Under the pieces are notes generated by a model, which was not told where the DNA came from, searched no databases, and saw nothing but the letters and a program-made list of their open reading frames with translations. DNA of 40,347 nt from Anaerolineae bacterium (lineage in GTDB: Bacteria > Chloroflexota > Anaerolineae > B4-G1 > SLSP01): the NCBI GenBank assembly GCA_016926915.1, contig JAFGNR010000228.1, positions 1 to 40,347 on the forward strand. The letters are read 5' to 3'. This document shows, in pieces, positions 19,403 to 34,488 of this stretch. The stretch's first letter is position 1; each line of letters begins with the position of its first letter. A program made the translations under genes and the position numbers.

Positions 19403-21099
19403 GAGACCTGGAACGCGCGTTTCGCAGTATCCGCAAGAAGGGCAGCTTCCTGAGGGGGCTGCTCGGTGACTTCGAGGGAAACATCGAGGTTAACGGACGG
19501 CCAGGCTATTACTATGTCCGGGTGGAGAAGCCCGGCGGATACGAAGTCGGTATCTTCCCCGGGCGTGTGCGGCCGCTGTACAACTTGCCGGTGCGGATCG
19601 AAACGCACCCCATCACCCGTGTGCAGTACATCGCCGGTCTGGATGACGAAACCGTAGCCTACGGCGGCGGCGATCCGGGCGCCATTACCACCGTTGAGCG
19701 GCATCAGCAGTCCCATGGTTGGGGCGGCGACGACCAGTTGATGTGGTTACACACGTTGCAGATTTTCCCGGTGCGGTGCCAGCCGCACGAGACTGATCCG
19801 GATAGCGTAGTCATACAGGGAGGGGTGTATCTCTCGGAGGCACAGCTATCGTGGATGCGTGAACCGGCAACCGTCGATCTGTCCGTGTATCGTATCACCG
19901 GCGTGCGGTTCGTGCTCCTGGAACTGGAATCTGACAACAACGTCGTGGTCACTCCCGCCACGGCGGAGATCGTGGAGGAGATCAGTTTACCCACCGGTGG
20001 GCGCTTTTTGGTGGCGGCGGTATGCCTCCGTAACAATGACGCTATCGCCATGCACGACATTGTAGACCTCAGGTTTCTTAATTCAGGCGTCGTGAATGGC
20101 GGCATTGAAATCGGCGAGGATATGATCATCGTCGGCGATCTCGATAGCGGACGCTGGGTCAAGGTGGGGTATCTGGGAGACGCACTTCTAGGAATGGACG
20201 GGCGGTTCACCGGGACCTTGAATGCCGACGACACAGATTTCGCTGGTGTGATGGTACAGAGAACCGCCAGCGACGAGTCGCGAGCTATGATTCTCTGGGG
20301 AGACAATGACGAATCCGAGACTGGCCTCACCGACTATCTGTGGTTTGTTTTTTTCTGGCATGGGGATGATGATGTGTCTCCCCAGGAAGATCCCGAGGCG
20401 CGGTATTTGGCCAGGGTAAGTCCGAATGGCACCTGGACGTTCTACGGGCAAAACTCAGGTGGTGTGCCCCACCTGATTAAGAATGAAGGCGGCGACGCCG
20501 GAGCCATGGCTGAGAACGATGCGCTTGAGCACGGTGCCTGGTGGCTAGACACCGATGGCGATCTGCATTTCTACAACTACGAGACGGGCAAGGATGTCAT
20601 CTTGGGCAGCGTGGATGGTGTCATTACCATCCGTGACGGCGATCTGGTTATGGAAGCCGGGGCCGAGGTGGATGGCGTGGATGTCAGCGCGCACGCGGCG
20701 GATGACAGCGCGCATCATGAACGCTACACTGATGCTGAGGCGCAGGCGGTAGCAGATGCGCAGATCGCCGCGCACACGACGTTAGCCAATCCGCATGGCA
20801 CCGAGATGGACGATCTGGACGACGTGGACGCCGGCGCGCCCAGCGATGGAGATGTCCTGACCTGGGACGATGCTGCCGGGTGCTGGGCTCCGGAAGCGCC
20901 CGGCAGCGGGGGTAGCATCACAGTACAAGAGGCGGATGGTTCGCCGGCAGTCTCGTCGGTGACGACGATCAAGGTAGGCAATGGTGATCTCGCCGACGAA
21001 GGCAGCGGCGTGGTACGCATTAAGACAGCGTCAGATGCTGGCGGCAGCGGAAGCGAGAACGTCGGCAGCACGCTGTATCTGTTTCACAACTATTTCTAG
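19399..21099 (+). CDS. Tail fibre/baseplate protein
   Basis: Fibre-type motifs VDGVDVSAH, AH....NPH and DLDDVD...PSDGDVLTWD....W.P. Confidence 0.7.
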   Translation: MRDLERAFRSIRKKGSFLRGLLGDFEGNIEVNGRPGYYYVRVEKPGGYEVGIFPGRVRPLYNLPVRIETHPITRVQYIAGLDDETVAYGGGDPGAITTVERHQQSHGWGGDDQLMWLHTLQIFPVRCQPHETDPDSVVIQGGVYLSEAQLSWMREPATVDLSVYRITGVRFVLLELESDNNVVVTPATAEIVEEISLPTGGRFLVAAVCLRNNDAIAMHDIVDLRFLNSGVVNGGIEIGEDMIIVGDLDSGRWVKVGYLGDALLGMDGRFTGTLNADDTDFAGVMVQRTASDESRAMILWGDNDESETGLTDYLWFVFFWHGDDDVSPQEDPEARYLARVSPNGTWTFYGQNSGGVPHLIKNEGGDAGAMAENDALEHGAWWLDTDGDLHFYNYETGKDVILGSVDGVITIRDGDLVMEAGAEVDGVDVSAHAADDSAHHERYTDAEAQAVADAQIAAHTTLANPHGTEMDDLDDVDAGAPSDGDVLTWDDAAGCWAPEAPGSGGSITVQEADGSPAVSSVTTIKVGNGDLADEGSGVVRIKTASDAGGSGSENVGSTLYLFHNYF

Positions 21100-21107
21100 G
21101 AGGTACT

Positions 21108-21503
21108 ATGGGAACCAGTCCGCAATTCGTCACGACGCCCAATGTGGGCGCGCAGACCATCGAGAATAGCGACGGCACGACGGTGCTGGATGTGTTGACT
21201 GCCGGTTCCAGTGGGACGCGGATTGGACAGTTGTTCGCGGTGCATAACGATTCTACAGCGGCAGTGCTGGTGCTGTTGTGGCTGCACGACGGCTCTGAGA
21301 GCCATCTAGTGGGCCAGATCTCGATGCCGGCGGCGACGTCTTCGGATGTGCATGTGACCGGCGACTTCCTACAGTCATCTACATGGGCCGGTGTGGACGG
21401 CGGGCTGATCATCCCCAGTGGTTGGAAGTTACAGGCCGGTTTGAATACTACGCTCACGAGTGGCAAGAAATGCTCTGTGATTGCTGCCGGAGGTGACTTC
21501 TAG
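21108..21503 (+). CDS. Small tail-associated protein
   Basis: AGGAGGT RBS; LTAGSSGTRI...LIIPSGWKL...GGDF pattern seen in phage tail modules. Confidence 0.6.
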   Translation: MGTSPQFVTTPNVGAQTIENSDGTTVLDVLTAGSSGTRIGQLFAVHNDSTAAVLVLLWLHDGSESHLVGQISMPAATSSDVHVTGDFLQSSTWAGVDGGLIIPSGWKLQAGLNTTLTSGKKCSVIAAGGDF

Positions 21504-22012
21504 TGTCGTTTGGTTTGTTTGGGTTTCCACGACGCGACTTTGAGATCGTGCGTTTGCCGACGCCCCCCACGGAGGGGACGGCGTTGACTGACGGGTCTTC
21601 GTCGGGGACTGCGTATAGTCTCTGGAAGACGGAGATCGAGCTGTTGCAGACCGGGGTGCTGGCCGGGGTGCATGTGGCGTTCTTTCGCGCCAATACCTTC
21701 ACGCTATACCTGCTGGATGCGTCTGACGTGGAGATGGCTCGTTCGGGGCCGCTCACCACGACCTCGACCAGCGTTCATAGCCGGTATTTTCAGTTTGTGG
21801 GGCGGCCTATGCTTCTAACTGGCGAGCGGTACCGGCTGGAGATGCAGATAGCGACGACCACAGAGCGGATGCGTTACACGACCACCAAGTTTGTGGGGGA
21901 CGTGTACAAAGAGACGCAATCGTGGTTAGGTGGCGGTTCGAATAATGCGCATATGGTGCTGCAGTTGGCGTTCGCGCGTGACAATCGCCGCGTGTGGTAT
22001 CAATACTACTAA
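21503..22012 (+). CDS. Hypothetical tail-associated protein
   Basis: Overlaps the upstream stop; beta-rich. Confidence 0.55.
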   Translation: MSFGLFGFPRRDFEIVRLPTPPTEGTALTDGSSSGTAYSLWKTEIELLQTGVLAGVHVAFFRANTFTLYLLDASDVEMARSGPLTTTSTSVHSRYFQFVGRPMLLTGERYRLEMQIATTTERMRYTTTKFVGDVYKETQSWLGGGSNNAHMVLQLAFARDNRRVWYQYY

Positions 22013-22031
22013 TACTAATCGGAGGATGACG

Positions 22032-23810
22032 ATGTTACAAAATGGGAGCTTTGAAGCGGGCTGGGTTGATATGCCGGCTGGGAATACCTTGAACCAGGCC
22101 CCTAAATATTGGAGATTGAGTTGGGTGAACCCCGGAGAATCCTTGTATGATGCACCTAACGATCTGGCCCAGGCTTACCCCGAGTGCGTGCACAAGCCGG
22201 CGCACCTGCTACCGCCAGAGGAGCGGCCAAACGGGGCGACACCGTTGATTCTGGACGGCACGCATACGTACAAGATTTTCTCTAGTGTGGCGTATGGCGC
22301 GCAGTTGTCGCAGGAGGTCGGGAATCTGGCGCCGGGGGATGACTACCGGCTAAAGGTGCCGGTCAACTGCCACCGGCAGCGGCCGGGTGACGATCCCTAC
22401 GCCGCGGAGATTGGTGTTTGGATTAACGGCCAGGGACGGTGGCTCAATCTGGACGAGTTGCCTGATCGTCAGTGGGTTTATCCTGTCGTGGTTGGCAAGA
22501 TCGATGAGGCGGGTCAGGTCGAGGTGGTCATAAGGGCGAAGAGCAAGTCGGGCGGGTTCGACTTCTTCATCGATTTCCTGCAGGACGAGTTATTGCCGGC
22601 GCCCGATCCGGTGGACTATGTGGTGACGGTCCATCTGCTGCCCCAAGACGCGACGGGGGAGGAGATGCTCCAGGTGGCGCAGGAGGCATTCGCCAAGCGC
22701 AACACGTTGCTGTATAGCGCGGACGACGCGGCGCGGCTGGTGGCCCCGGGTCTGCCGGGATCGGCGGTGCACGTCTGGTGGCCGGAGCGTTGGACCAGCG
22801 GCGACATTGTGGCGTGGTTGCAAGGGAAGGGCGTTGACAAGGTGGTCTGGCGACCGGAGGCTCCTCCAGAGCCGCCACCGACTCTATCAGCGAAGGAGTT
22901 TGTCGGTTTGCACGTGCAGCGTGCGTGCGGCTCCGGCGGCGATCTGGAGCGAGCCTTGCTGGACTATCATCGAGAGCGGCCACCGCAGGCGGTGAAGGTG
23001 CTGAACGACACGGGCTATGCGGAGCTACTAGCGGCTGAGGGCTTCGAAGGCAACACGGTCTACCGGCACGTGTTGTCTGTCGCGTGGCAGCAGAATCTCT
23101 TGAGCATGCCCAAGCGGCAGGCGGTGGAGTGGTTCTATGCACAGCAAGCTGCCAATCTAGAGCGCTTCCCGTTTGATTTCGTCGGAGGGCTGAACGAGAT
23201 CAGCGGCGCCGGTGAACTGGAAGCGTTTGTGGCGTTTGAAGTAGAGTGGATTCGTTACCTGGCAGACCGGGGGATAAAGGCCACGGTCGGGGCCTGGTCG
23301 GTGGGAAATCCAGATCTGGCGCTAATTCCTCACGTGGCGGTGCTGGCGGCGGCGGCTGAGGCATACGGCGCTGTGATGGACTATCACTGGTATGTGCCCC
23401 AATCGCCGTGGTGCCCGTTTGACCAGGTAGCGCCAGGGACTACTAAAACGTGGTATGAGATCTTCTGGCCCGACTACCACGGGCGCTGGGCCCGTATGGA
23501 TGAGATTCTGGTGCAGGAGTATGGTATTCGTGTTGATTGGTGCTTTGGCGAGTATGGCGCCGTCGCCATTGACCAGATGTCGCGGCATATGGACCCTGGG
23601 GCGGGCTGGCGGCATCAGGACTGTCTGAATGCGGATGTGGAGCGGCTGATCGCGCTGATGCAGCGGGATGTAGCGCAGTTGCAGACGACGCGAGCGTTCC
23701 AGGAGGGGCGTGTAAAGTGGGCAAACTTCTTCACGATCAATGTGGACGACGACTGGCCATTCTTCCAGTTACATCCGGTGGATTTACAGCGACTTAGGCA
23801 AACGCTATAG
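22032..23810 (+). CDS. Multidomain glycoside-hydrolase-like protein, putative lysin
   Basis: GGAGG RBS; LQNGSFE carbohydrate-binding-like N-terminus; central LLPQDA...SADDA...W domain; TIM-barrel-like C-terminus with GLNE and FGEYG; last gene of the late operon. Confidence 0.55.
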   Translation: MLQNGSFEAGWVDMPAGNTLNQAPKYWRLSWVNPGESLYDAPNDLAQAYPECVHKPAHLLPPEERPNGATPLILDGTHTYKIFSSVAYGAQLSQEVGNLAPGDDYRLKVPVNCHRQRPGDDPYAAEIGVWINGQGRWLNLDELPDRQWVYPVVVGKIDEAGQVEVVIRAKSKSGGFDFFIDFLQDELLPAPDPVDYVVTVHLLPQDATGEEMLQVAQEAFAKRNTLLYSADDAARLVAPGLPGSAVHVWWPERWTSGDIVAWLQGKGVDKVVWRPEAPPEPPPTLSAKEFVGLHVQRACGSGGDLERALLDYHRERPPQAVKVLNDTGYAELLAAEGFEGNTVYRHVLSVAWQQNLLSMPKRQAVEWFYAQQAANLERFPFDFVGGLNEISGAGELEAFVAFEVEWIRYLADRGIKATVGAWSVGNPDLALIPHVAVLAAAAEAYGAVMDYHWYVPQSPWCPFDQVAPGTTKTWYEIFWPDYHGRWARMDEILVQEYGIRVDWCFGEYGAVAIDQMSRHMDPGAGWRHQDCLNADVERLIALMQRDVAQLQTTRAFQEGRVKWANFFTINVDDDWPFFQLHPVDLQRLRQTL

Positions 23811-23825
23811 CTAGGTTTGAATGTG

Positions 23826-23861
23826 AGCAGCCCCTTCTCATCTCACGAAGGGGCTGTTTTT
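23826..23861 (+). terminator. Intrinsic terminator of the late operon
   Basis: AGCAGCCCCTTC / GAAGGGGCTGTT stem followed by a T run. Confidence 0.8.
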
Positions 23862-23876
23862 ATTTCCCGGGGAATA
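23861..23876. promoter_or_regulatory. NBS-like palindrome copy 2 (TATTTCCCGGGGAATA, one mismatch)
   Basis: 15/16 match to TATTTCCCGGGAAATA, between the convergent operons. Confidence 0.6.
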
Positions 23877-23890
23877 TGTCGAGAGTGTCT

Positions 23891-24232
23891 TTAAGTCTGC
23901 TTCATCTCAGGATGTTTTAGATCATATACGGTGATCTTTCCGGCTCGCTTTGCCTTTTGGTATATACGACACTCGTCGGCGAGTGGACAGCGGACATCAC
24001 CTGCGTAGACAGCCTGGCACTTGGCACTTGTATACTCCGAAACAAGGTCTAGCGAAGCGTTTTCTCCGAACTTTTCCTGCGCCTCGTCTATATAGTGCCC
24101 GAGCAGCGACAGGCAAAATAGCTCACGCCTCGATCGTCTAGGTCGTGACGCCCCCGCTGTTCTGATCTCGAGATCGCGATCGTTATTATTAGGCTTCTTT
24201 TCTTCATTCTTTTCAAAAAGTGACAATTGCAT
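23891..24232 (-). CDS. Hypothetical protein with a Cys cluster
   Basis: AAGGAG RBS before MQLSLF; C...C.L...C.IY. Confidence 0.65.
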   Translation of the reverse strand: MQLSLFEKNEEKKPNNNDRDLEIRTAGASRPRRSRRELFCLSLLGHYIDEAQEKFGENASLDLVSEYTSAKCQAVYAGDVRCPLADECRIYQKAKRAGKITVYDLKHPEMKQT

Positions 24233-24245
24233 GTAGGTGAACTCC

Positions 24246-25013
24246 TTAGGCGTGATCCACAATCGGCAGGCTGCGGGCTGATCCGGAATCTAGATCAAGG
24301 TAGGTGGCATAGATATCAAGGTCTTGGGTGACCACCAGACGATACAGATACTGAGCTGCCCAAGCAGCCATAGCCTGGTTGATCATTAGACTTTGGGCAT
24401 CTTGCTGCACCAGATCGGCGCAAGATAAGCCGTTCTCATCTGGGTCTATTATGTCCAGAAGCTCCGGGTGGAGTACGGAGGGCATTGGCAAGTGCGAGCA
24501 AAAACCCAATGGCGAGATAACGGGACACGACGTATTACTATTCCCCAGCAGTACTTGCCCGGACTGCAAGTTATTACCGCAGTCCAACCACCACGCACCC
24601 AGATTGCCGGCAGCGCTGAGAATTGATTGGCGGGCGGGTGCATTGTCCACAGCTCCCACGATGATGGTAGCATTGTCAGGACTCGTATACATGTGCAACT
24701 GCGCACACGGTTGTGCCAGATACTTGATAGACAAGCCGAATGCCAGTGAGTAACGCACCGCAAGTGTGGTGGCTTTGGGCTGACCCACCTCCGCTGGTGC
24801 GAAGTTTTGCCGTCCAATGTTTTTTTCCTCAACCGTGTCTGGGTCTACGAAGGTGAGCTGTATTTTGCGGATAGCGCGCGCGTGGTAGACCAAGCGCGCC
24901 AAATGCAGAGCCAAAAACGAGCCTGTTCCGCCACAACCAACGAGTACAATGCGGTAGATCCCGGGATCCCCCAAGAGTACTGGGTAACGTTTCCCTATTT
25001 GTATCTCCATCAT
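24246..25013 (-). CDS. ThiF/E1-like adenylating enzyme (PRTRC-type)
   Basis: GCGGTGS, DPDTVEEKNIGRQNF, GAVDN, WLDCGN and SCAD (putative catalytic Cys). Confidence 0.93.
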   Translation of the reverse strand: MMEIQIGKRYPVLLGDPGIYRIVLVGCGGTGSFLALHLARLVYHARAIRKIQLTFVDPDTVEEKNIGRQNFAPAEVGQPKATTLAVRYSLAFGLSIKYLAQPCAQLHMYTSPDNATIIVGAVDNAPARQSILSAAGNLGAWWLDCGNNLQSGQVLLGNSNTSCPVISPLGFCSHLPMPSVLHPELLDIIDPDENGLSCADLVQQDAQSLMINQAMAAWAAQYLYRLVVTQDLDIYATYLDLDSGSARSLPIVDHA

Positions 25014-25597
25014 CGCCTCCGATTCAAAAACGGCCCAGTGTCGGTGAATAACACTGCCGCAGGGATGCGCCAGAAGTCACCATAAACTCCCACACGTATT
25101 GCGATCTCCGGGATCGAGTTCAGGCACCCGACAACGCCATAGAACCGACACCCTTGCTCATCACGAGTGTCGGTTTGTGAAAAGAAGGCCCGCATTGTAC
25201 CGTGGCTGTGCACCTCGGCGATGACGCTCGCCGGTTCCAGATCGCTGGTGTAGCAACTGGTCGACGGTCCGTTTACCTGGGAGGGTCGGTAAACGTGCAT
25301 CTTGTCACCGTATGGTGCAATCTGGTAAACAGCTTCATGATTGGGGTTCGCCATAGCATCACTGTAAAGCGTGCTGAGTAGCCAGCCAGGGAGGCGCCCA
25401 TAGTGCAACTCCACCCTAGGAGCCAGATTTGCTAACCCGGCAATGCGTGTCCAGGCAACCGGCACCAAAGCCTTCATGTAACGCGTCTCCGCGTACTTGA
25501 AGATCCCGTTGCCAGCCATGATGTAAGCATACTTTCCTGGCGGTAGCGAGATATCACCGCCGTTATAACACATATATTCAACCGGCGAAGGAATCAT
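25010..25597 (-). CDS. JAB/Mov34 metalloprotease (PRTRC protein A-like)
   Basis: YIMAGNGIF N-terminus; E...HSHGTMRAFFSQTDTRDE; IRVGVYG. Confidence 0.92.
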   Translation of the reverse strand: MIPSPVEYMCYNGGDISLPPGKYAYIMAGNGIFKYAETRYMKALVPVAWTRIAGLANLAPRVELHYGRLPGWLLSTLYSDAMANPNHEAVYQIAPYGDKMHVYRPSQVNGPSTSCYTSDLEPASVIAEVHSHGTMRAFFSQTDTRDEQGCRFYGVVGCLNSIPEIAIRVGVYGDFWRIPAAVLFTDTGPFLNRRR

Positions 25598-25598
25598 C

Positions 25599-26315
25599 TC
25601 ATCTAATCCTCTCTATGAAATCTTCAATACACGGACGCATGGGCACCAGCGTGTCTGCTGGATATGCTGCCGAGTCCAGGGAAATCTCTGACCAGTAGTC
25701 AATAATTTCCCTGGACTCGCCCCGCACCTTGCCCTCGCTTAGATCACGATTGAAGTCCGAGTCGAAAAACATCTCTACGGCTTCCATGATGGTTTCCGGC
25801 GCGCACACCGGAAACGCCAGTGTGCCGCTGCATATCTTGCCGTTATTGCCAACGTTGGGCACCGGTGCCCGATACAACACCTCTTTGGCTTGGGGGTACT
25901 TCTCTACGGCGACGACGTAGTACTCAACTCCCGCACCCGCGAAAATCAGTGGTGGCAGAGGTACCGAGACCTTAAGCCGCCGGTTAGGCATTAACACTGA
26001 CAGCTCGCGGCGCTGTGGTGGTAGATAAACGGCCATGACTACGCCACCCTCGTTGTGGCCATAGTATATTGTTCCCGGCGGCAGCAGCCCCGATCTCCAT
26101 GGGACATTGGCTAGAGCGGCAGCCAGCGCACTCGGATGCACCTCGTAGGTGTGTGTGGGGACGCCCATCGTACTATAACGTGTGAGGATCACAGATTCAG
26201 TGAAGATATCTAGTGTTATGGCCCTATATTGTCGGATTGGGGACTCAAGCCCTTCAGTACCGGCAATCTGCGGTAACATCACACCTTGATGAGCAAGGCA
26301 AAGCGCGTTTTTCAT
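25599..26315 (-). CDS. Prokaryotic E2 family D protein (PRTRC protein B-like)
   Basis: GLLPPG, VPLPPLIF, LYRAPVPNVGNNGKICSG (Cys retained), FFDSDFN. Confidence 0.88.
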   Translation of the reverse strand: MKNALCLAHQGVMLPQIAGTEGLESPIRQYRAITLDIFTESVILTRYSTMGVPTHTYEVHPSALAAALANVPWRSGLLPPGTIYYGHNEGGVVMAVYLPPQRRELSVLMPNRRLKVSVPLPPLIFAGAGVEYYVVAVEKYPQAKEVLYRAPVPNVGNNGKICSGTLAFPVCAPETIMEAVEMFFDSDFNRDLSEGKVRGESREIIDYWSEISLDSAAYPADTLVPMRPCIEDFIERIR

Positions 26316-27133
26316 TGGGCATTCCTTTCCATGTTCTCTATAAAGACGAGGATTTCATCTATGGACCCCTCCTTTAAGTACCAGTCCTGGAGTTTTTCCA
26401 GTTTTTCGACGCGGGGCTTAGCGGCCTGCCACGCGTCCCGCAGGAAAAGCAGATCCGGTACTTGCCAATAAAAGTCTTGAACTTCAAATAAGCCCCTCTC
26501 CCAGAGAGGAGGTGTCGTGAGAAACGGATTGGGGTCGATCTCGGTCAGCGACAGGAAAACCGTCGCCAGACCGTTGAGGGGTTCCGGTAAGTCATCCAGG
26601 GTTTCAAGAGCACGCAATGGATCCTCTGCCCATACCATATCTGGGCAGCGGTGACCGTGATACTCCCACCATTCTACCGCGATATTGGCTACAGCGGGGT
26701 CAAGTTCGCGATGCTGTGTCGCCAATACGAGTAATGGCATAGCGTAGTCTGGGATCTCGATCAGTTCCTCTAGAGAAATCCCCCATCCCACAAAAGGAAT
26801 AGGGGCCGTGAATATCTCTACTAGCGTCATTTGTTGTCCCGCCCAATACATTTCCTCTAAATAACTCATATCTAGAGGAAACAGATCGGATGCAACACAA
26901 CCGATGATCTCAGTGATCGCGTCGATTGGATCCTTGGTAAGATGCAGATCGGTATTTGGGAACAGTGTCTGTGATATCACGCCGAAGGATCCAATGAGAT
27001 GAAACCATGAAAGCAGCTCCTGGATGCTGCGATATGTTGGTATTTGGCGGGCCGCTAAGCCACGCGCAACATCCATGGTGGTTAGAACCCGGGTATTGCG
27101 TTCTGCGTGGGTGTTGGATGTAGTTGCTGGCAT
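26312..27133 (-). CDS. Uncharacterised acidic protein in the position of PRTRC protein F
   Basis: GGAG RBS before ATG 27133 (alternative 27076); between Ubl and E2. Confidence 0.65.
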   Translation of the reverse strand: MPATTSNTHAERNTRVLTTMDVARGLAARQIPTYRSIQELLSWFHLIGSFGVISQTLFPNTDLHLTKDPIDAITEIIGCVASDLFPLDMSYLEEMYWAGQQMTLVEIFTAPIPFVGWGISLEELIEIPDYAMPLLVLATQHRELDPAVANIAVEWWEYHGHRCPDMVWAEDPLRALETLDDLPEPLNGLATVFLSLTEIDPNPFLTTPPLWERGLFEVQDFYWQVPDLLFLRDAWQAAKPRVEKLEKLQDWYLKEGSIDEILVFIENMERNAQ

Positions 27134-27522
27134 TTCTCCACCAGTCTTTCTGTGTTTATCACTAACAAGTCTAAGTGCTGAAGCGCTTCTGCTATTTCCT
27201 GTTGGCGATTGACAATTTCTTCTGCAGAGGCGTTTTCCAGTTCCAGCAGGAGCGAAATCCCCGGTACCTCTAGAGGAGGGATATTTTGCAAGCAGACGAT
27301 TAGTGCTGCGCAGAGTGTTGGGCGTATCGACTGACAATAGCCTTTACGTCCTGCTCGCTTTACGAACGACACCTGGGTGATGCCATCATCACCAACGGTT
27401 TCTTCAATACGTGCCTCGGCGACCTCTGGGAAGTACGCTGCCAACTGGCGGCGTACTTCCTCTGGCGTGAACTGGTCTTCACTGTCTAAAAACTCGTAGT
27501 CCCCGTACTTATACCTCTTCAT
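27082..27522 (-). CDS. Prokaryotic ubiquitin-like protein (PRTRC protein C-like) with a C-terminal extension
   Basis: RYKY...F.D....TPEEVR..LA.YFPEVA.A...F.KRAGRKG followed by 85 further residues. Confidence 0.85.
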   Translation of the reverse strand: MKRYKYGDYEFLDSEDQFTPEEVRRQLAAYFPEVAEARIEETVGDDGITQVSFVKRAGRKGYCQSIRPTLCAALIVCLQNIPPLEVPGISLLLELENASAEEIVNRQQEIAEALQHLDLLVINTERLVEKCQQLHPTPTQNAIPGF

Positions 27523-28981
27523 TTTTCCTGCCTCCTTTTAACCCCAGATAGCTGTGCAGTAGGTCTGAGATAATACTCTGAACGTGTTCCAAATCACTAA
27601 AAAAACGCATGTCGGAGGGACCTTGTCCATCGCGTCCGATGGATGCGATGACATGCCAGTCTGGGTCTTGGCCACCGTTGGGCTCTTTGATGCGGACCAC
27701 CAACACGATATCTGGATCCGGAGTTGTCGAGACGACCGTTGTGATCGGCGCCGGGATGACAAGTGGCGAGTTTGTGGCTGCCGGCTCCGGGATGACGGGT
27801 GGCGAGTTTGTGACTGCCGGCTCCGGGATGGCAGGTGGCGAGTTTGTGACTGCCGGCTCCGGGATGGCAGGCATAATGGTTGTGGTCACGGTATGCGGCG
27901 ATTCAGGTTCCGAGTTCTCAATGCTGTCTAGAGATACGCCGGCACGCCGCCAGCATTCGGGGCAGGCATACCAAGGGGTCACGTACCGCGTCTGGTCGCG
28001 GCGCCAGATGCCAGGTACCACGCTAGGCCGTCTCTTGCAGTAGTTACACCTGTCCCAAGTGCTAGGTTCGGACTGCCCCCAGTCTTGCGGGTTAAACCCC
28101 ACTGCTAGGCGCTCGGGTCCGTCACGTTCAATTAGCCACTGCGCTTTTTTGGCGTTCTGGCAGGCAGGCTTTACGCAACGAGACTGCTTGAGCACAATCA
28201 CGTTGTGCTTACAGCCAAGGCACGCGGGCAGATCGTTCTCCGGGACCCAGTCAAGTGGGAAAGGTACGTCTTTTAGTGCGCGAGTGTACACATTCACATA
28301 CTGCTTGACGGCATCGGCGAGGTCGCGTGTCGAGCGCACCTCGCCGACATCATAAACTAGATCAAGCATGCTCTCTAATGAGGCGATGCCCACTAGAGAC
28401 GCAAGCGTGCGCCCATGCTTGGCCGTGATCGTACCATTTGCAACTAGATCCTGAATCTTCTGGGGAAGCGTGAGGAGCCGCAAAAGATTGGAGATAGTTC
28501 CCTGGGTGACGCCCCACTCGCGGGCAATTTCCTTTTGTCCTAAATCCAGATTTTTCAGTGCAATTTCGATCATGTGTGCTTTCTCGATGTCATTGACCTC
28601 TTGGCGGTCTTCATTTTCCCGCCAGGCGATCGCTGCCATCTGGAAAGCCGTGAGTTCCTGGATGTCAACCGGCATGCAAGCATATTCCGGCTGACTCTGC
28701 GCCAGATTGTGAAAAGCTCGTAGCCTGCGATGACCGAAGGCGAGCTGGACGTGTATGTTAGGTCGCTGCAAGGCATCAGCTACGCCGATGATTGTGGCGT
28801 TGAACGGCTGAGAGCCGTTTACCAGACGTCCAATGGGCACCTGAAGCAGACCCAGCGTTTCCTCGCGGGCGGGACGCAGCTCCACAATGCTCTGCATGAG
28901 GTCGTCTACCTGGTAGTCGGCAGCCGCACGGCCCTGATACGGATTGTCTTTTATCTTTTCTAGCGGAACTTTGTAGATCAT
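27509..28981 (-). CDS. parB: ParB/Noc-family CTPase with HTH, two Cys clusters and a Pro-rich linker
   Basis: NPYQGR, GLLQ.P, AFGHRRLRA (GxRR), EN..R...N.IEKA, HTH QKEIAREWGVTQGTISNLLRLL. Confidence 0.9.
   Translation of the reverse strand: MIYKVPLEKIKDNPYQGRAAADYQVDDLMQSIVELRPAREETLGLLQVPIGRLVNGSQPFNATIIGVADALQRPNIHVQLAFGHRRLRAFHNLAQSQPEYACMPVDIQELTAFQMAAIAWRENEDRQEVNDIEKAHMIEIALKNLDLGQKEIAREWGVTQGTISNLLRLLTLPQKIQDLVANGTITAKHGRTLASLVGIASLESMLDLVYDVGEVRSTRDLADAVKQYVNVYTRALKDVPFPLDWVPENDLPACLGCKHNVIVLKQSRCVKPACQNAKKAQWLIERDGPERLAVGFNPQDWGQSEPSTWDRCNYCKRRPSVVPGIWRRDQTRYVTPWYACPECWRRAGVSLDSIENSEPESPHTVTTTIMPAIPEPAVTNSPPAIPEPAVTNSPPVIPEPAATNSPLVIPAPITTVVSTTPDPDIVLVVRIKEPNGGQDPDWHVIASIGRDGQGPSDMRFFSDLEHVQSIISDLLHSYLGLKGGRKNEEV
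27751..27882 (-). repeat. 36-bp tandem repeat (about 3.5 copies) encoding PAIPEPAVTNSP
   Basis: Unit GGTGGCGAGTTTGTGACTGCCGGCTCCGGGATGGCA on the + strand; no spacers. Confidence 0.85.
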
Positions 28982-29004
28982 GGCTCTCCTTTGTTATCCC
29001 TCTC

Positions 29005-29039
29005 GCCTGCAGGCCGGTGCCCGATGCCGGCCTGCAGGC
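29005..29039. repeat. Perfect 13-bp inverted repeat upstream of parB
   Basis: GCCTGCAGGCCGG-N9-CCGGCCTGCAGGC. Confidence 0.75.
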
Positions 29040-29082
29040 CACACGAGGAGGTTTTTCGCGTCACGTTCCTCGTAGGAGCGTG

Positions 29083-29670
29083 CTAATGCTGCCGTGTTTT
29101 CTGGCCACCCGGAAGCGCGATCCTACCATCAGTGAAATGTGGCACCTGGTATTGCCAAATGTGGTCGGGTAGAGCTTCTTCATGGAGTGTAAATCTGCGC
29201 TCGCCAATCTCGTGTTGGTCTACATCAATGCGGCGCGGGATCCTCGGGCCATTCCCCGGTGAGGTTCGTACCGCGTTGTAAATCAACGCTGGTAGATCTG
29301 AAAGAGCACACGAGAAACCTGAGTTGAGTTTTCCAGCCATCGAGATATGGAGATGCGCCACACGACGCACTATCATCAGATCTAGGTTTACCAGGCGGCG
29401 CATCACCCAGGTGACGCAGCCGCTCTGGCCGATAAAGCGGTCAACCACGTAGGGGCCTTTTTCAAACCGTGCCTTAACGGCCTGTCGGTTGGACTCAGCT
29501 AGGAGATCGGGGACGTTGGTGAGTAGAGACATGAGCAGTGGAGCGGCAAGCGGGTTACCCTGGACACGGAATATCTTCAGATGATCCCGGGTGACCCGTA
29601 GGCCAACGCGACCATAATAGTTTCCCGATGGCACTGCATATGACCAGGTGAAATGTTTCAAGATGTCCAT
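29083..29670 (-). CDS. Hypothetical protein
   Basis: GGGAGAG RBS; 195 aa, co-oriented with the early operon. Confidence 0.65.
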   Translation of the reverse strand: MDILKHFTWSYAVPSGNYYGRVGLRVTRDHLKIFRVQGNPLAAPLLMSLLTNVPDLLAESNRQAVKARFEKGPYVVDRFIGQSGCVTWVMRRLVNLDLMIVRRVAHLHISMAGKLNSGFSCALSDLPALIYNAVRTSPGNGPRIPRRIDVDQHEIGERRFTLHEEALPDHIWQYQVPHFTDGRIALPGGQKTRQH

Positions 29671-29743
29671 GTCTTCTCTCCATTCTTGTTTGACGGTATT
29701 TCCGGATGTATGAGATGCGGCAGGCGCCTAAAGATGGCTTCCA

Positions 29744-30124
29744 TCATCGGCTCACTTTCCTGATGCTGGCCGAAGGTTTCCCTTCTTTGCGGAAAACGAG
29801 AATTTCTGGATGATTAAGCGCATACCCTGTTAGAGCCTTGTCGTTCCACGATACGCGTGGTTTGGTGTAAATGATTGTGAACATCTGACCGCGCAGACTC
29901 TGCGTGGTGGCGACTACAGATTGCTTCAATTCCTGCTCCAACTCCTGACGCTTTTCATCCAGAGCAGCTATCGCGTCCTCATACTCGGATTCCGCTGCGG
30001 ACAAGGCGTCGGCTACGGGTCTGAGAATCTCGTTGCGCCGGGCGCGGTACTCTAGGTTGAGCAAATCGATTTGGCTTACGAGTTCTTCATATACGGCCAT
30101 AAGTATCTGAGGGTCAATCATCAT
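29744..30124 (-). CDS. Gam/Gp157-like coiled-coil protein
   Basis: GGAGGT RBS; coiled coil followed by RVSWNDKALTGYALNHPEILVFRKEGKPSASIR. Confidence 0.55.
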   Translation of the reverse strand: MMIDPQILMAVYEELVSQIDLLNLEYRARRNEILRPVADALSAAESEYEDAIAALDEKRQELEQELKQSVVATTQSLRGQMFTIIYTKPRVSWNDKALTGYALNHPEILVFRKEGKPSASIRKVSR

Positions 30125-30130
30125 ACCTCC

Positions 30131-31105
30131 CTATAGTCTGAGACTCATCATTAGGGCCGAGAGAGCTGCGTTCCAGTCTCCGTCAGATTTTGCCGTCTCG
30201 ACCACTGCCATCACATCGAATGTGTGGGCAATCTTGCCCTGCGCCTTGAGTTCGTGGTATCTCTTCCAGAAATCTGTAGAAGAGATCGCAGCAGAGGAAC
30301 GCGGGGCGTCCTCGCGGGGAAAGTAGTCGTCTAGAGGTGACGGCGTCAGGGTATTAAAAATGCGACGCGCTTCGCGCTCGGCCAGCGATTCGGCAATCCA
30401 CGCGTTACCGTCATCCTGGTATGGCTTCAGCCATCGTAGCAACGCGTGAATCTGCCCAGCGGTCATAGACGTTAGCGATCTGTGACCGGTCAGATATTCC
30501 TGGACCGCGTGCCGGCGCTCGGCGGCATCGGCTTCACCGGCGAAGGCTTGATCCAGAACCATGGCGATCCGAGACAGGCTTTGTGGGTTGATGCTTTTCG
30601 ACCCTTTATAATCTTCGGCATATTTCATGATTTTCTGCCGCACTGTACTGGGATCATACGGTCGGGTCACGGGCGCTTGCTGAGCCTGGGTAGGTGGCGG
30701 CGGCGCTTGCTGAGTCTGAGTGGTTGACGGCGGCGCGGGCGGAGTCTTTCCAAGACGCTGCAGCAGTTTCTCTGGTAGCGGTTCTACCGGCTCATCCTCT
30801 CCGAACGTGATGAGGCGGAGATATTTCACTTCACCGTCATCACCGCGACCGCTAGAACGGCTGTACCAAATGTCGTTTCCAAATTTGGGATGCGAGCGAC
30901 GCTTCCACTCACACCCCAACGCCACCACGATCGTGGGGCCGTACGCATCACTTGCCACCACCTGGGCGCCGATCTTTCCCCAATCAAATGTGGCGTACTC
31001 ATCGATGTTCCGTCTCAGACTCGGACCCGCCTCTCGGTCGCCTTGAAGTACATGCAGTATTCCCTCAAGCGCCATTACGGCGCGTTCCAGCAGTTGATCG
31101 TTCAT
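30131..31105 (-). CDS. DdrB-like single-stranded DNA binding/annealing protein with extra C-terminal domains
   Basis: FDWGKIGA...WKRRS...IWYSR...GEVKYLRLITF resembles Deinococcus DdrB FDWSLIGA...YRRR...IKYSR...GDIEYVSLAIF (recalled from memory). Confidence 0.7.
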   Translation of the reverse strand: MNDQLLERAVMALEGILHVLQGDREAGPSLRRNIDEYATFDWGKIGAQVVASDAYGPTIVVALGCEWKRRSHPKFGNDIWYSRSSGRGDDGEVKYLRLITFGEDEPVEPLPEKLLQRLGKTPPAPPSTTQTQQAPPPPTQAQQAPVTRPYDPSTVRQKIMKYAEDYKGSKSINPQSLSRIAMVLDQAFAGEADAAERRHAVQEYLTGHRSLTSMTAGQIHALLRWLKPYQDDGNAWIAESLAEREARRIFNTLTPSPLDDYFPREDAPRSSAAISSTDFWKRYHELKAQGKIAHTFDVMAVVETAKSDGDWNAALSALMMSLRL

Positions 31106-31347
31106 ATTCTTCTCCTGATTACTCGACGCCGATTGTGCCGGCGCACCGGTCTACGACGCTTCTGGACCTTGATAATCTCCATAAGAGCGTTGATCGTCGC
31201 CCTTAGTTCTGCGATTTGCTGTGTGCTATGTGTGCTAGTCATACTGCTCTTGAGATCTGGTGTGTTTTTTTGGGGGGAGTGGATGTCGGCGCAGAGTAAC
31301 GCCAGATTCTTCTCAAGGAGCCAGTCGACGACGTCGTTTTCGTCCAT
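31102..31347 (-). CDS. Small hypothetical protein with an Arg-rich tail
   Basis: TGATG coupling to the upstream gene. Confidence 0.55.
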   Translation of the reverse strand: MDENDVVDWLLEKNLALLCADIHSPQKNTPDLKSSMTSTHSTQQIAELRATINALMEIIKVQKRRRPVRRHNRRRVIRRRI

Positions 31348-31787
31348 CAGGGCACCAGCGCCAGGTTGGCGTTCTCTATGTCCTGATATTCCCATCCGTC
31401 CAAGGCCCATGGAGGTAAGATCCTCTGTGTGTACCAAAGGTTCTTCGCCTCTTCTCGCATTTCCTTGATCTTGCGTGGGCTTCTCACGGGGATCGGTTGG
31501 CCAATCCAGGAACGCACAAGATTTTTCCAGACGCGCACTGTCCAGCCGCGATCAACCAGCCATTTTTTGATATTTTCGATGTTCAGATCCTCCTTTACTT
31601 GATCTACAACACAGCGCTGTTCGTAGGTGGAGAGAAACTCTTCGGTGTACATCCGCATCCGCCATTTATTCGTCCACGGGTTCAACACAAAGTCAATCCG
31701 GGCAATTGAATATCCGTTTCTCTCCAGGGGCTTTCCCTGGGGTTTCGGATACTCCGGATTGACCACCTGAGCTGGTTGTAAAGGCAT
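31347..31787 (-). CDS. Hypothetical protein
   Basis: AAGGAG RBS; operonic. Confidence 0.65.
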   Translation of the reverse strand: MPLQPAQVVNPEYPKPQGKPLERNGYSIARIDFVLNPWTNKWRMRMYTEEFLSTYEQRCVVDQVKEDLNIENIKKWLVDRGWTVRVWKNLVRSWIGQPIPVRSPRKIKEMREEAKNLWYTQRILPPWALDGWEYQDIENANLALVP

Positions 31788-31790
31788 CGT

Positions 31791-32054
31791 TCACTCCTTC
31801 AAAGTCTTGACTACGCGGCACATGACATTTTTGCCGCACATCCATAGGTAATAGTCGTAAACTTCATCTGTGACCGAGTCCAGGTTTTCTAGTGTCACTT
31901 GGTCCAGGGAGACGTCCTCGACCAAGCGGTAAAACGTGGGACCATCAGCGCCGTCGACCCGCACCACTGGATAGGGTGAGCGACGGCGGGTCTGCTGTGT
32001 TCTTATCAGGAAATGCTTCGATATCAAAGTTTTGACGTCCTCAGCGGTCCACAT
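31791..32054 (-). CDS. Hypothetical protein
   Basis: GGGGAGG RBS; TAATG coupling. Confidence 0.6.
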   Translation of the reverse strand: MWTAEDVKTLISKHFLIRTQQTRRRSPYPVVRVDGADGPTFYRLVEDVSLDQVTLENLDSVTDEVYDYYLWMCGKNVMCRVVKTLKE

Positions 32055-32263
32055 TAGAAAACCTCCCCGGTTTGGATCTCTGGCGCAACGACAGTTTGGA
32101 AGCAGAAAGTTTCTCTGATGGGCCAATCACCGGTATGGTCTTCGATGATTGAGATTTGGGGCGGACCCAACGGCGACCAACCCTCGGCGAGAGCATCGTT
32201 GACCTGGTCCACAAGTTCGCCAACCGAAGAAGCCGTTAGAATTTTATAACGCAGTCTGTTCAT
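32054..32263 (-). CDS. DUF1737-like protein; first gene of the early operon
   Basis: AAAGGAG RBS; YKIL......L..QVN.AL.EGW.PLG.P motif. Confidence 0.75.
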   Translation of the reverse strand: MNRLRYKILTASSVGELVDQVNDALAEGWSPLGPPQISIIEDHTGDWPIRETFCFQTVVAPEIQTGEVF

Positions 32264-32276
32264 GGAATCTCCTTTC

Positions 32277-32290
32277 ATTTCCCGGGAAAT
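32277..32290. promoter_or_regulatory. NBS-like palindrome copy 3 (ATTTCCCGGGAAAT)
   Basis: Perfect 14-bp palindrome next to the RBS of the first early gene. Confidence 0.7.
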
Positions 32291-32297
32291 TGATACT

Positions 32298-32329
32298 AAA
32301 AATCCCCCGCCGGTATTGACGGGGGATTT
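32298..32329 (-). terminator. Leader terminator/attenuator of the early operon
   Basis: On the - strand CCCCCGTC-AATACC-GGCGGGGG-ATTTTT; the G-U pair works only on this strand. Confidence 0.6.
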
Positions 32330-32344
32330 GCTTTCTGTTATGAT
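32316..32344 (+). promoter_or_regulatory. Sigma70 promoter for a short antisense RNA
   Basis: TTGACG-17 bp-TATGAT with extended TG. Confidence 0.7.
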
Positions 32345-32350
32345 GAAGGC

Positions 32351-32423
32351 ATCCCTGGGCCGCCTGTTCCGGCTTGGGGTAGGCCTCACTCTACGTTTGC
32401 GGCGTGAGTGGGGCCGTTTTTTT
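32351..32423 (+). ncRNA. Candidate ~73-nt sRNA antisense to the early leader
   Basis: Consensus promoter, a 5' hairpin, then terminator GGCCTCACTC/GAGTGGGGCC plus T7; no ORF. Confidence 0.6.
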
Positions 32424-32432
32424 CTGTTAGTC

Positions 32433-32487
32433 ATTGACGCTTGTAAAGTACAATCTAATCTTATCACAGTTATTTACACTTGTCAAT
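32433..32487. promoter_or_regulatory. Overlapping opposed promoters with inverted operator-like repeats
   Basis: Leftward TTGACA(32481-86)-17-TAAGAT(32458-63); rightward TTGACG(32434-39)-16-TAATCT; ATTGACnnnTGTAAA in inverted orientation. Confidence 0.65.
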
Positions 32488-32575
32488 AGCTAAATTGGGC
32501 ACTCGTAACTTGTCATATTGTTAGTTGGCGATATGTAGATTGCGGCGTATCTACAACTACACAGGAGAGTGCATC

Positions 32576-33583
32576 ATGAAACCCCTACATCTACGTCTGT
32601 CGCAAGCTATCACGGGCTTCTTGCTGGAAAAGGAAGCCGCTGGCAAGAGCCCTCACACACTGAGAAACTACCGGGGCACTTTTGCTAAGGTAGAGGCGTT
32701 TCTGGTGGCACGTGGGTATGGTGACCCGCTGCTGCAGGAAATCAGCCGCGAGATCTGGGTGGAGTTTCTGGCTTGGCTGCAAGAGCAGCCCTTGGGAGGC
32801 GCAGCTGCGCGTTCTGGGCGACTCAGCGCCAAAACGGTGTGTAACGTGCACACCGATTTGAGCGCTCTGTATACTTGGGCCACCCGGCTCGGATATACTG
32901 AGGAGCATCATCTCAAGAGCATCGAGCGTCCGGAATATGATCGTCCAGCCATCGAAACCTTCACGCGTGAGGAGGTGACCGCTTTACTACGGGCCTGCGA
33001 CTACGTTCAGCAGGCGGTGGGGAGTGGCGATGGGCGGCATACAGTACGCCGGCGGCGTCCCACGGCAATCCGCGATCGGGCTATCATCAAATTGTTACTA
33101 AGCTCTGGGATTCGAGCCTCGGAGCTTTGTTCTGCGCGACTCACTGACCTCGATCTCAAACGGCGACAATTGCGCGTCGCCGGGAAAGGAAAGGGACGTG
33201 ATTCCAAGGTACGCCTAGTCTTCTTTGGAACGCGTACCCAGCGTGCCCTATGGCGTTATCTAACAGAATTTTCAGAGGAACGCCCTGAGACCGCACGGGT
33301 GTTTGTAGTCGATTTTGAGAATCCCCGACCCATGAACCGCGGCGTATTGCGGAAGATGTTGTTGCGAACTGGACAACGCGCTGGCCTCAGCGGTGTGCAT
33401 CCCCATCGCTTTCGACACACGTTTGCAGTAAACTATTTGAGGAACGGAGGGGATGTACTCACGTTGCAGGCAATTCTGGGACATACCGATTTGCGCATGG
33501 TTAAACACTATGCGCATGTCGCCGCACAAGACTGTGAAGCAGTTCACCAGCGTGCCGATCCGGTGGATACTTGGGGGCTGTAG
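32576..33583 (+). CDS. int: Tyrosine recombinase/integrase
   Basis: AGGAG RBS; SAM-like N-terminus (SPHTLRNY); GIRASEL, GKG..K, HPHRFRHTFA, LGH and catalytic Y (KHYAH). Confidence 0.95.
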   Translation: MKPLHLRLSQAITGFLLEKEAAGKSPHTLRNYRGTFAKVEAFLVARGYGDPLLQEISREIWVEFLAWLQEQPLGGAAARSGRLSAKTVCNVHTDLSALYTWATRLGYTEEHHLKSIERPEYDRPAIETFTREEVTALLRACDYVQQAVGSGDGRHTVRRRRPTAIRDRAIIKLLLSSGIRASELCSARLTDLDLKRRQLRVAGKGKGRDSKVRLVFFGTRTQRALWRYLTEFSEERPETARVFVVDFENPRPMNRGVLRKMLLRTGQRAGLSGVHPHRFRHTFAVNYLRNGGDVLTLQAILGHTDLRMVKHYAHVAAQDCEAVHQRADPVDTWGL

Positions 33584-33586
33584 TCT

Positions 33587-33645
33587 GCACGGATGCTATC
33601 TGAAGGGGGCCGCACGGATGCTAAAAAAGGCGCTACCGTGCGGCC
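33587..33645. repeat. att-arm repeats GCACGGATGCTA x2 plus an inverted partial copy
   Basis: 33587-33598 and 33612-33623; GGCCGCACGG (33608-17) / CCGTGCGGCC (33636-45). Confidence 0.7.
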
Positions 33646-33664
33646 TTTAGATTGTGGAGTGGTA

Positions 33665-34467: not shown

Positions 34468-34488
34468 TCCACACGGGTTGAGAGGGTA

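Follow-up and report, generated by a model that had tools for sequence, protein, structure and literature searches.

A putative, diverged PRTRC/6d ubiquitin-like conjugation cassette in the early operon of an Anaerolineae prophage

Introduction

Among the bacterial operons that combine a ubiquitin-like protein (Ubl) with an activating enzyme (E1), a conjugating enzyme (E2) and a JAB peptidase, one that resembles the locus treated here was described by Iyer et al. (2006; PMC1779556) as type '6d'. In that paper's account of it, the operon encodes a small Ubl whose terminal Gly is conserved, a JAB protein with an extra N-terminal alpha+beta domain that carries a conserved Arg and Trp, a stand-alone E1 without a rhodanese domain, a 'rapidly diverging' alpha-helical protein, and an E2 that has a conserved Cys, lacks the classical His, and has an 'absolutely conserved' His C-terminal to the Cys. 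Here I describe a six-gene cassette that appears to be of this type, also known under the name PRTRC, and that lies in a prophage of an Anaerolineae bacterium (assembly GCA_016926915.1, contig JAFGNR010000228.1). The stretch analysed, hereafter the window, is the whole 40,347-base contig; the genome to which it belongs is in 460 contigs and is 88.7% complete.

PRTRC genes have been met in phages before. RefSeq annotates PRTRC E-C-F-B-A-ThiF in Ralstonia phage Dina (NC_055026), and Burkholderia phage BgVeeders33 has the same layout. The section of PMC13366799 devoted to a B. gladioli prophage lists ParB, ThiF and PRTRC A, B, F, C and E, says that their function is unstudied, and refers to PRTRC as a 'partitioning cassette' thought to act in segregation. 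A 2026 preprint (10.64898/2026.10.01.756045), in its portion on a gut prophage, names PRTRC protein B as a recurrent mutational hotspot that accompanies a receptor-binding protein diversified by a diversity-generating retroelement. An initial annotation of the window, made from the DNA letters and their open reading frames, had stressed the phage location of the cassette; the location is real yet already on record, in Dina (RefSeq), in the B. gladioli prophage and in the gut prophage as these sources present them. The same annotation held that the gene set has no established function, and this agrees with the literature searched, in which I found no functional study of PRTRC or 6d.

Of the related systems, Bil, formerly type 6C, and type II CBASS act in phage defence, and Bub (type 6E) has been shown to conjugate proteins; according to the relevant sections of PMC11601603 and PMC11601596, Bil and Bub have no separate E3, and the E2 is proposed to recognise targets. 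A different arrangement is the Ubl of the lambda/T1 protein TAPI, for which the corresponding part of Iyer et al. (2006; PMC1779556) proposes that the JAB domain of TAPK cuts at the last Gly of the Ubl.

Results

The cassette occupies bases 24246-28981 and consists of six minus-strand genes in the order ParB-Ubl-X-E2-JAB-E1. By their coordinates, the ParB and Ubl genes overlap by 14 nt, Ubl and X are separated by 5 nt, X and E2 overlap by 4 nt, E2 and JAB are 1 nt apart, and JAB and E1 overlap by 4 nt. Five of the six proteins have family matches, X being the one with none. The initial annotation had described six tightly coupled genes with recognisable E1, E2 and JAB motifs, and this description is borne out: the motifs are present and are invariant in alignments of 10 E2, 10 JAB and 12 E1 sequences, with relatives drawn from 19 genome loci and the two phages. 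Among 10-23 relatives that are 26-45% identical, the catalytic residues do not vary, and the three enzymes look intact as far as their sequences allow a judgement. Its further claim, that this is the PRTRC-type gene set, stands for the set as such but not for each member when checked against hidden Markov models (HMMs): E1 alone scores above its PRTRC equivalog cut-off, protein E is missing, and X cannot be recognised as protein F. The order C - middle protein - B - A - ThiF agrees with the order annotated by RefSeq in Dina and with the 6d description of Iyer et al. (2006). Models for PRTRC A, B, C and ParB fall under their cut-offs; because A, B and C are nevertheless each the best or only NCBIfam match, the corresponding cassette proteins are best read as diverged relatives, not equivalogs. 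The cassette thus appears to be a diverged, apparently intact PRTRC or 6d ubiquitin-like conjugation cassette.

The ThiF-type E1 (24246-25013, minus strand; 255 aa) has a single adenylation domain (ThiF, PF00899, 57.4 bits). It scores 162.5 bits against PRTRC_ThiF (TIGR03736; cut-off 144.75) over 232 of 245 model positions, with the same outcome in a genome search. Its invariant residues are G26-x-G-G-x-G31, D57-x-D-T-V (D57/D59), R68-Q, K80, D123, D144-x-G-N and S197-C198. The E2-like protein (25599-26315, minus strand; 238 aa) matches Prok-E2_D (PF14460) at 82.7 bits and PRTRC_B at 73.2 bits, the latter below the cut-off of 131.45; a sequence search of the PDB with it gave no match at E<=1. 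Its candidate catalytic residue is Cys162, in the context I-C162-x-G with N154 upstream, and the pattern N...(I/V/M)C-x-G is found in all 23 sequences of an extended alignment, in keeping with the conserved Cys of 6d. (Three loci, L032, L033 and L036, were left out of that alignment as duplicates of L071-L073, and four of 12 E2s from IMG/VR were used, as L041-L048 are near-identical to L040.) The JAB/JAMM metallopeptidase (25010-25597, minus strand; 195 aa) matches Prok-JAB (PF14464) at 27.8 bits and PRTRC_A at 53.4 bits, below the cut-off of 101.8. E88, H130-S-H132 and F-S140-x-x-D143 are invariant in all 10 sequences. The protein also carries an extra N-terminal domain of about 110 aa, which aligns across the clade without an evident invariant Arg or Trp.

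This combination of enzymes bears on whether the cassette might perform cofactor chemistry with a sulfur carrier of the ThiS/MoaD-ThiF type in place of protein conjugation. E1 does have weak matches to ThiF and MoeB models (E 2.2e-12 to 0.0025), and the Ubl fold ends in Gly as ThiS and MoaD do where PMC1779556 treats them. Scores against the ThiF and MoeB equivalog models are, however, far under their cut-offs (47 vs 159; 34.7 vs 275), the cassette includes both a JAB peptidase and an E2 whose Cys is conserved, and no thiamine or molybdopterin genes are seen among the neighbours scanned, which makes this explanation exceedingly improbable.

The Ubl gene (27082-27522, minus strand) encodes 146 aa and appears to be a fusion of a beta-grasp domain and a second protein. 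The beta-grasp part, residues 1-61 (27340-27522, minus strand), ends in K60-G61, matches Prok_Ub at 23.8 bits, and scores 33.2 bits against PRTRC_C, short of the cut-off of 45.95. An AlphaFold2 (AF2) model has a beta-beta-alpha-beta-beta succession in residues 1-54 at a block pLDDT of about 79-85 (overall 69), then a disordered linker, residues 59-84, mostly of low confidence, then helices in residues 87-134 and a tail. What follows the beta-grasp in the gene, residues 62-146 (27082-27339, minus strand), is here called the tail domain and ends in an invariant G145-F146. K60-G61 is invariant in all seven aligned Ubls, those of Dina and BgVeeders33 included, and Gly61 is conserved in 11 of 11 sequences, which corresponds to the terminal Gly of 6d. 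The Gly-Phe end is shared by all five aligned clade members and by eight of eight clade sequences in total. A word-based search for Ubl homologues returned only the window's own protein among 32 candidates.

Three loci from the host's class show how the two parts are joined or parted. In L071 Ubl and tail are fused and the protein ends in VPVGF. In L072 they are separate: the first gene ends VKRAGPKG-TGA, and its stop overlaps the ATG of an 89-aa gene ending PIGF. In L074 the first gene ends IKRAEPLG-TAG, the next ATG follows 5 nt later, and the gene that starts there ends PNGF. Thus two independent natural splits fall exactly after the conserved Gly. Since this Gly is found in 11 of 11 sequences, the Gly-Phe end in eight of eight, and the splits lie right behind the Gly, there is good comparative evidence that the mature Ubl would end at Gly61 and that the tail would be a separate functional unit. 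The adjacent JAB protein is the obvious candidate for a peptidase that would free the Ubl in the fused forms. A third C-terminal variant is seen in L073 (4870-5211), where three TTKGR repeats follow the conserved KG of the Ubl and the protein ends ...EQPG.

Protein X (26312-27076, minus strand; 254 aa, all-alpha) sits where PRTRC protein F sits in phage Dina. Its mechanical open reading frame reaches 27337 and would overlap Ubl; the start at 27076 was chosen, and it fits the adjacency of Ubl and X in relatives. HMMER places X in a family of 54 representatives, X included (E<=1e-3, among 1.84 billion representatives), mostly about 240-320 aa long with a few shorter fragments, whose members are 21-29% identical to X. 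Genes of this family lie between Ubl or tail and E2 in L007, L012, L071-L074 and the Stanieria plasmid. X itself has no Pfam or NCBIfam match, and no family is matched by more than two of 49 members (best E 0.0037); there is no PRTRC model among the 11 NCBIfam families that any of the 49 matches at E<=1. Protein F was considered and rejected as an identity for X, no similarity being detectable (BLASTP against Dina F, E 3.9; hhalign against Dina/BgVeeders33 F, probability 0.08%). The AF2 model of X, from an alignment of 49 rows, has 13 helices at pLDDT 91.8 and pTM 0.87, and X is in this respect like the largely alpha-helical, fast-diverging extra protein of 6d. Foldseek against the PDB gave no match at E<=0.001 (best 0.86), VIA-align against 48,161 chains gave at best Z 5.5 over 67 residues of a helical hairpin, and the best match in BFVD had E 0.17; a weak or absent structural match is no proof of a new fold. 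A predicted complex of X with the Ubl-tail protein scored 0.39, as against 0.10 for the best of three controls, with at least 60% contact agreement among runs and partner pLDDT of at least 80. The mark for such scores is reached by 58 of 80 solved complexes and two of 110 mismatched pairs, and passing scores of 0.60 or under are found in just seven of the 80 solved complexes and in both passing mismatches. The model thus hints weakly at X as a partner of Ubl.

The first gene of the cassette (27509-28981, minus strand) encodes a ParB-family protein of 490 aa, with matches to HTH_ParB (63.7 bits) and TIGR00180 (75.6 bits, above the cut-off of 58.45) and, well below its cut-off of 278.6, to PRTRC_parB (TIGR03734; 33.7 bits). 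It has an N-terminal ParB domain with a G83-H-R-R86 box, a helix-turn-helix (HTH) and a small C-terminal domain, and matches Spo0J, Noc and ParB structures in the PDB (best E 2.3e-18). A Cys-rich insert of about 95 aa, roughly residues 254-345 (DNA about 27950-28220) with eight Cys, is absent from an aligned Leptolinea ParB; these Cys stand in CxxC-type pairs and look zinc-ribbon-like. Three 36-nt tandem repeats at 27746-27871 (repeat family D1) encode a Pro-rich unit of 12 aa. The C-terminus has no similarity to Dina protein E. Inside parB, at 28252-28423, lies a 172-nt contig from an RNA library at depth 2.7, which is no proof of transcription, as DNA can occur in such libraries.

Upstream of parB is a gap of 101 nt that contains a perfect 13-bp inverted repeat, GCCTGCAGGCCGG, with a 9-nt spacer (29005-29039), about 25 nt before the start codon. 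These are the sole pair of exact copies in the window, and a count of 10-mers is at chance level (three matches with up to one mismatch; mean of shuffles 3.02). The repeat could be a candidate ParB or operator site, or an RNA hairpin.

Might ParB and the Ubl machinery together form a partition or maintenance module that segregates or stabilises the element's DNA? The operon of the cassette is headed by a ParB with intact GHRR box and HTH, the unique perfect inverted repeat lies just upstream, most carriers of related cassettes are plasmids (below), and the passage on segregation in PMC13366799 says as much, although that source itself calls the function unstudied. Against this, an integrase, a tRNA fragment and host genes (below) indicate an integrated prophage, which needs no partition; no ParA-type match was found among 10 operon proteins scanned with Pfam and NCBIfam; ParB stands directly upstream of the cassette in only two clade loci, the window and L006, and so not in most of them; and an E1/E2/JAB cascade has no known role in partition. 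I consider a partition module distinctly unlikely.

The initial annotation had set the cassette in a temperate phage, and phage genes flank it on both sides. Virion genes on the plus strand span bases 1 to about 23810 and include a Mu-like head protease (2877-4280, family matches), a major head protein (4688-5680; phrog_1005, E 1.9e-67) and an open reading frame of tape-measure size (10171-16158; 1995 aa). A tyrosine integrase gene (32525-33583, plus strand; PF00589, 120.5 bits; phrog_1, E 1.2e-46) is divergent from the early operon, which runs on the minus strand over bases 23891-32467 and is integrase-proximal. The cassette is indeed co-oriented and contiguous with these early genes, as had been claimed; that they are 'early recombination genes' hangs on a single match, that of a DdrB-like single-strand-binding/annealing protein encoded upstream of the cassette (30131-31105; PF12747, 43.9 bits). 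The middle part of this protein is Gln/Pro-rich and repeated, with a 30-nt direct repeat at 30672-30731. The operon ends with a gene (23891-24232, minus strand; from the list of open reading frames) whose ATG, at 24232, lies 13 nt past the E1 stop and which encodes a Cys-rich protein of 113 aa that has no Pfam or NCBIfam match and no counterpart at the equivalent position in L006; it is possibly an accessory gene.

The best sigma-70-like promoter match in 23600-33700 lies at 32458-32486 on the minus strand, just upstream of the first early gene (32467), with 10 of 12 matches and a TG extension; the total number of such sites is no more than in shuffles, and the same scan found no promoter-like site in the gap upstream of parB. 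Two near-identical 14-bp palindromes, ATTTCCCGGGGAAT (23862-23875) past the last early gene and ATTTCCCGGGAAAT (32277-32290) inside the first, could be an operator or terminator pair, or chance.

Boundaries of an inserted element, which the initial annotation had named as an outcome that would speak against its reading, were looked for and not found: no direct or inverted repeats bounding the cassette were detected in the window, and the cassette has no recombinase of its own. In G+C the cassette (0.52-0.55) does not stand out from the remaining early region (0.52-0.57) but differs from the structural genes (0.55-0.69). Because of this composition, the lack of bounding repeats and the tight downstream junction, the cassette appears to be an integral part of the prophage early operon, with no sign of a separate insert.

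The right end of the prophage has the usual appearance of an end at a tRNA attachment site, to judge by the integrase, a tRNA fragment and host genes in succession. The fragment (33667-33713, plus strand, read from the sequence) is the 3' part of a tRNA gene, with an anticodon arm with CAC, a T arm and an acceptor end; neither ARAGORN nor Rfam reports a whole tRNA there. It is likely the attachment-site core. Two repeats, GCACGGATG, at 33587 and 33612 precede it, and a terminator-like hairpin follows it. Cellular-type genes lie beyond 33790: an Mrr nuclease, a GH3 glycosidase and a LacI regulator. The first of these, directly outside the prophage end (33790-34467), encodes an Mrr-type (type IV, methyl-directed) restriction endonuclease (Mrr_cat, 106 bits; PADLOC mREase_IV). 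At the other end the contig begins within virion genes, and therefore the prophage is truncated on its left. The 460-contig genome holds neither a second copy of the 47-nt tRNA core nor the left part of the phage, so that the other attachment site was not found.

Contigs of a DNA sequencing run, X1, span 20000-33694 as long pieces (word depth about 200-240) that break near 33584-33740. The bases 33667-33713 are covered by short pieces of high depth, and at 33713 and 33715 there are loose ends that enter other sequence. In one of these ends there is a third copy of the GCACGGATG-type repeat motif, a hint of an excised (attP) form in the sample. The host side, 33884-35485, has no cover among the contigs listed, which proves nothing.

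In IMG/VR, four records are related by capsid, none of which has a PRTRC ThiF match; one alone, G002 (52.5 kb), is about 95% complete. Its capsid protein is 67% identical, and structural genes are common to both (window 13-21099), but it has no counterpart for window 21108-33583, that is, for any of the early region. The window genes at 1048-2880 are likewise without counterpart in G002. The comparison points to clear module mosaicism, in which the whole early module differs and not the cassette alone.

Relatives of the E1 are found on 521 of 72,556 plasmid records and on 14 of 50,697 phage records, and the initial annotation's statement that such sets come mostly from plasmids and integrative elements is right in that they are mainly plasmid-borne. 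The closest E1s, 39-45% identical, come from Anaerolineae-type genomes, a metagenome-assembled genome (MAG) of Acidobacteria, a Nostoc MAG, and cyanobacterial and Chlorohelix plasmids. Among the 19 genome loci, tblastn detects E2-JAB-E1 in six, E2 directly before E1 in four, JAB plus E1 in four, and E1 alone in five. Of 32 IMG/VR loci with an E1 relative, searched with local HMMs, 12 have E2-JAB-E1 (nine of these near-identical), five have E1 with a downstream E2, one has E1 and JAB, and 14 have E1 only. In the host's class seven of 301 sampled genomes match at E<=1e-20, the window's own genome included, and again the order is E2-JAB-E1 wherever E2 and JAB are detected.

By their neighbouring genes, the contexts of these relatives are mobile, phage-like or integrative. 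L006 has the order integrase, ParB, Ubl, X, E2, JAB, E1, DnaA_N-domain protein, and in L007 a DUF3102 protein lies upstream and a DUF4055 portal downstream of the cassette. In L011, from an Anaerolinea genome, the cassette is followed by a gene (10996-16722) for a 1909-aa protein with Eco57I-type methylase and SNF2/helicase domains and an intein, which looks like the large anti-restriction/methylase proteins of plasmids and phages. Reduced forms exist: in L008, L010, L016 and L021, all Anaerolineae-type contigs, E2 immediately precedes E1 and no JAB was detected, and in L070, a conjugative plasmid of Stanieria, a ParA gene and others separate X-E2 from E1.

These reduced forms (JAB-less E2-E1 in four of the 19 loci; X-E2 apart from E1 in Stanieria), the occurrence of the core on unrelated plasmids and phages, and the nearest structural relative without a cassette would all suit a cassette that does nothing for the phage, being either a mobile insert in its own right or in decay. 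In the window, however, there is no composition step at the edges, no bounding repeat and no recombinase belonging to the cassette; all six frames are open, the catalytic residues are invariant, and the junctions are tight, that with the downstream gene included. This explanation is accordingly very improbable.

Discussion

The identity of the cassette, its intactness, its phage-integral position and the maturation of Ubl at Gly61 are, taken jointly, fairly probable. Several observations weigh against them. Four of the five matching PRTRC models score far below their cut-offs, and none of 10 operon proteins matches PRTRC E or F at E<=0.01. The Prok_Ub score of Ubl is just under the cut-off of 25, and Foldseek gave no match to the Ubl model at E<=0.001 (best 0.56), so that the beta-grasp assignment rests on weak HMM matches and topology. 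In E2, FNRD-L stands in place of the downstream His described by Iyer et al. (2006); in the 23 sequences the His (F-x-x-H) occurs in 15, and FN-x-D in eight (the window, L006, L070, L038, L039, L040, L049 and L018). No window-type ParB is seen in the stretches examined of L007, L011, L012, L070 and L071-L074, and since ParB is absent beside most clade loci, a mechanistic link to it is not general. The Ubl-X prediction counts as weak support. G002, the closest complete relative by capsid, speaks for module exchange and gives no test of the cassette alone or of its boundaries. The cassette may also be expressed in the lysogen, and may then have a defence role.

Motifs, gene order, comparisons and split genes, from which every step is inferred, suggest the following course. 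The 146-aa pro-protein would be cut by JAB after Gly61 into a 61-residue Ubl with a C-terminal Gly and an 85-residue helical tail protein. The ThiF E1 would adenylate Gly61 and take Ubl as a thioester on Cys198, from which it would be handed to Cys162 of E2. E2 would then move Ubl to target amines with the clade-specific X, the tail protein, or both as adaptor, and JAB might also reverse the mark. ParB would be a CTP-clamp-type DNA binder and would position or control the system on the DNA of the element, or would itself be a substrate. The targets put forward by the initial annotation, namely the ParB clamp, host defence proteins or a competing phage, are hypothetical candidates.

What such a system would do for its carrier is a matter for tentative judgement. 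The core rides on plasmids, integrative elements and phages, always beside replication or establishment genes, and I therefore lean, with considerable reserve, towards a role in conflict or establishment once the element's DNA becomes active in the cell, that is, in counter-defence or inter-element competition. Conflict is favoured because the distribution is sporadic (seven of 301 genomes) and because protein B is a variation hotspot in one prophage, as far as the preprint's report on it goes. A housekeeping or virion function is less likely. A more specific version of counter-defence would be anchored on DNA: X would be a Ubl-binding specificity factor, Ubl would arise from a pro-protein, or from a two-gene pair, together with a tail ending in Gly-Phe, and ParB clamps would tether the cascade to incoming or induced phage DNA, where it would tag attackers or binders. 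As a whole it is improbable.

The same sparse and mobile distribution would also fit a defence system carried by the prophage. Like Bil, it would be expressed in the lysogen and, when a phage or plasmid invades, would tag one of its structural or replication proteins, shielding host and prophage (superinfection exclusion). Type II CBASS and Bil do serve anti-phage immunity, the target of Bil being a phage tail protein, as set out in the pertinent sections of PMC11601603 and PMC11601596; the recurrent variation of protein B in the gut prophage, so far as the preprint describes it, fits target recognition in an arms race; and the strong hairpin-forming repeat parts parB from the genes upstream, so that separate regulation is possible. 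Yet the gap with this repeat has no promoter-like site, and the cassette is co-oriented and translationally coupled in an early operon beside a DdrB-like gene, which is not a typical moron position. PADLOC defence models match no cassette protein beyond weak hits to the Rossmann region of E1, where CBASS E1-E2 models cover residues 21-126 only (best E 2.3e-12) and the BilD model reaches E 0.0043. E1 is also a single domain, and BilD is multi-domain in the published description of Bil that I used. A defence role thus seems unlikely, if appreciably less so than partition. Defence of the Bil kind and maintenance centred on ParB are both live rivals to a role in conflict or establishment.

PRTRC/6d is a bacterial ubiquitin-like operon type, and the window adds no new kind to these; nor is its occurrence in phages new. 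What it contributes is evidence that phage early operons of Chloroflexota-type and other environmental lineages regularly carry the cassette as a passenger. The joining of Ubl and tail in one gene and the X family are details both new and useful, and three points lend themselves to testing: the maturation site at Gly61 indicated by naturally split genes, the separate tail protein with its Gly-Phe end, and a confidently folded X family in which no structural relative was detected. These narrow down the first biochemical experiments. As cultured phages that carry PRTRC genes exist, an uncultured prophage is not the best entry point.

How, then, does the cassette compare with known systems? Its order and orientation (Ubl, large middle protein, E2, JAB, E1) are those of Dina, BgVeeders33 and prophage AB2 of B. 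gladioli, the last as laid out in PMC13366799, and in Dina and BgVeeders33 too it lies in the early or replication part of the genome. The E1s of these two phages are 30-34% identical to that of the window, and their Ubl beta-grasp likewise ends ...GxKG and is followed by an extension. These extensions have no Gly-Phe end, unlike that of the window, and the E2s of both phages have the downstream His that the window E2 lacks. In Dina, protein E lies upstream and the stretch shown contains no ParB, whereas in the window ParB comes first and there is no E; and X, though in the place of Dina protein F, is without similarity to it.

With 6d, as that type is characterised in the pages cited, the window shares the Gly at the end of Ubl, the extra domain of JAB, the stand-alone E1 free of rhodanese, an E2 with the conserved Cys but no classical His, and a helical protein; it differs in that E2 has no downstream His, Ubl is fused to a second protein, and the accompanying ParB falls outside the description. 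The lambda/T1 TAPI protein, in the account cited above, resembles the window in that a phage Ubl is joined through a linker to a C-terminal domain and a JAB peptidase is present. TAPI and TAPK are encoded among tail assembly genes without E1 or E2, whereas the window has a full activation cascade in an early operon.

Bil, Bub and type II CBASS with Cap2 and Cap3, as far as the cited sources go, have in common with the window that mobile or defence loci encode a Ubl, or a Ubl-like C-terminus, together with E1, E2 and a peptidase. The proteins scanned in the window include neither a CD-NTase nor a DUF6527 partner. The E1 of the window is one ThiF domain of 255 aa, whereas BilD has the multi-domain architecture IAD-AAD-CYS and its model matches the Rossmann part alone; and E1 and E2 are encoded apart, on either side of JAB, where type II CBASS has an E1-E2 fusion. 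As Bil corresponds to 6C and Bub to 6E, the cassette is of a different type and, unlike these and CBASS, it is tied to ParB and placed in a phage early operon.

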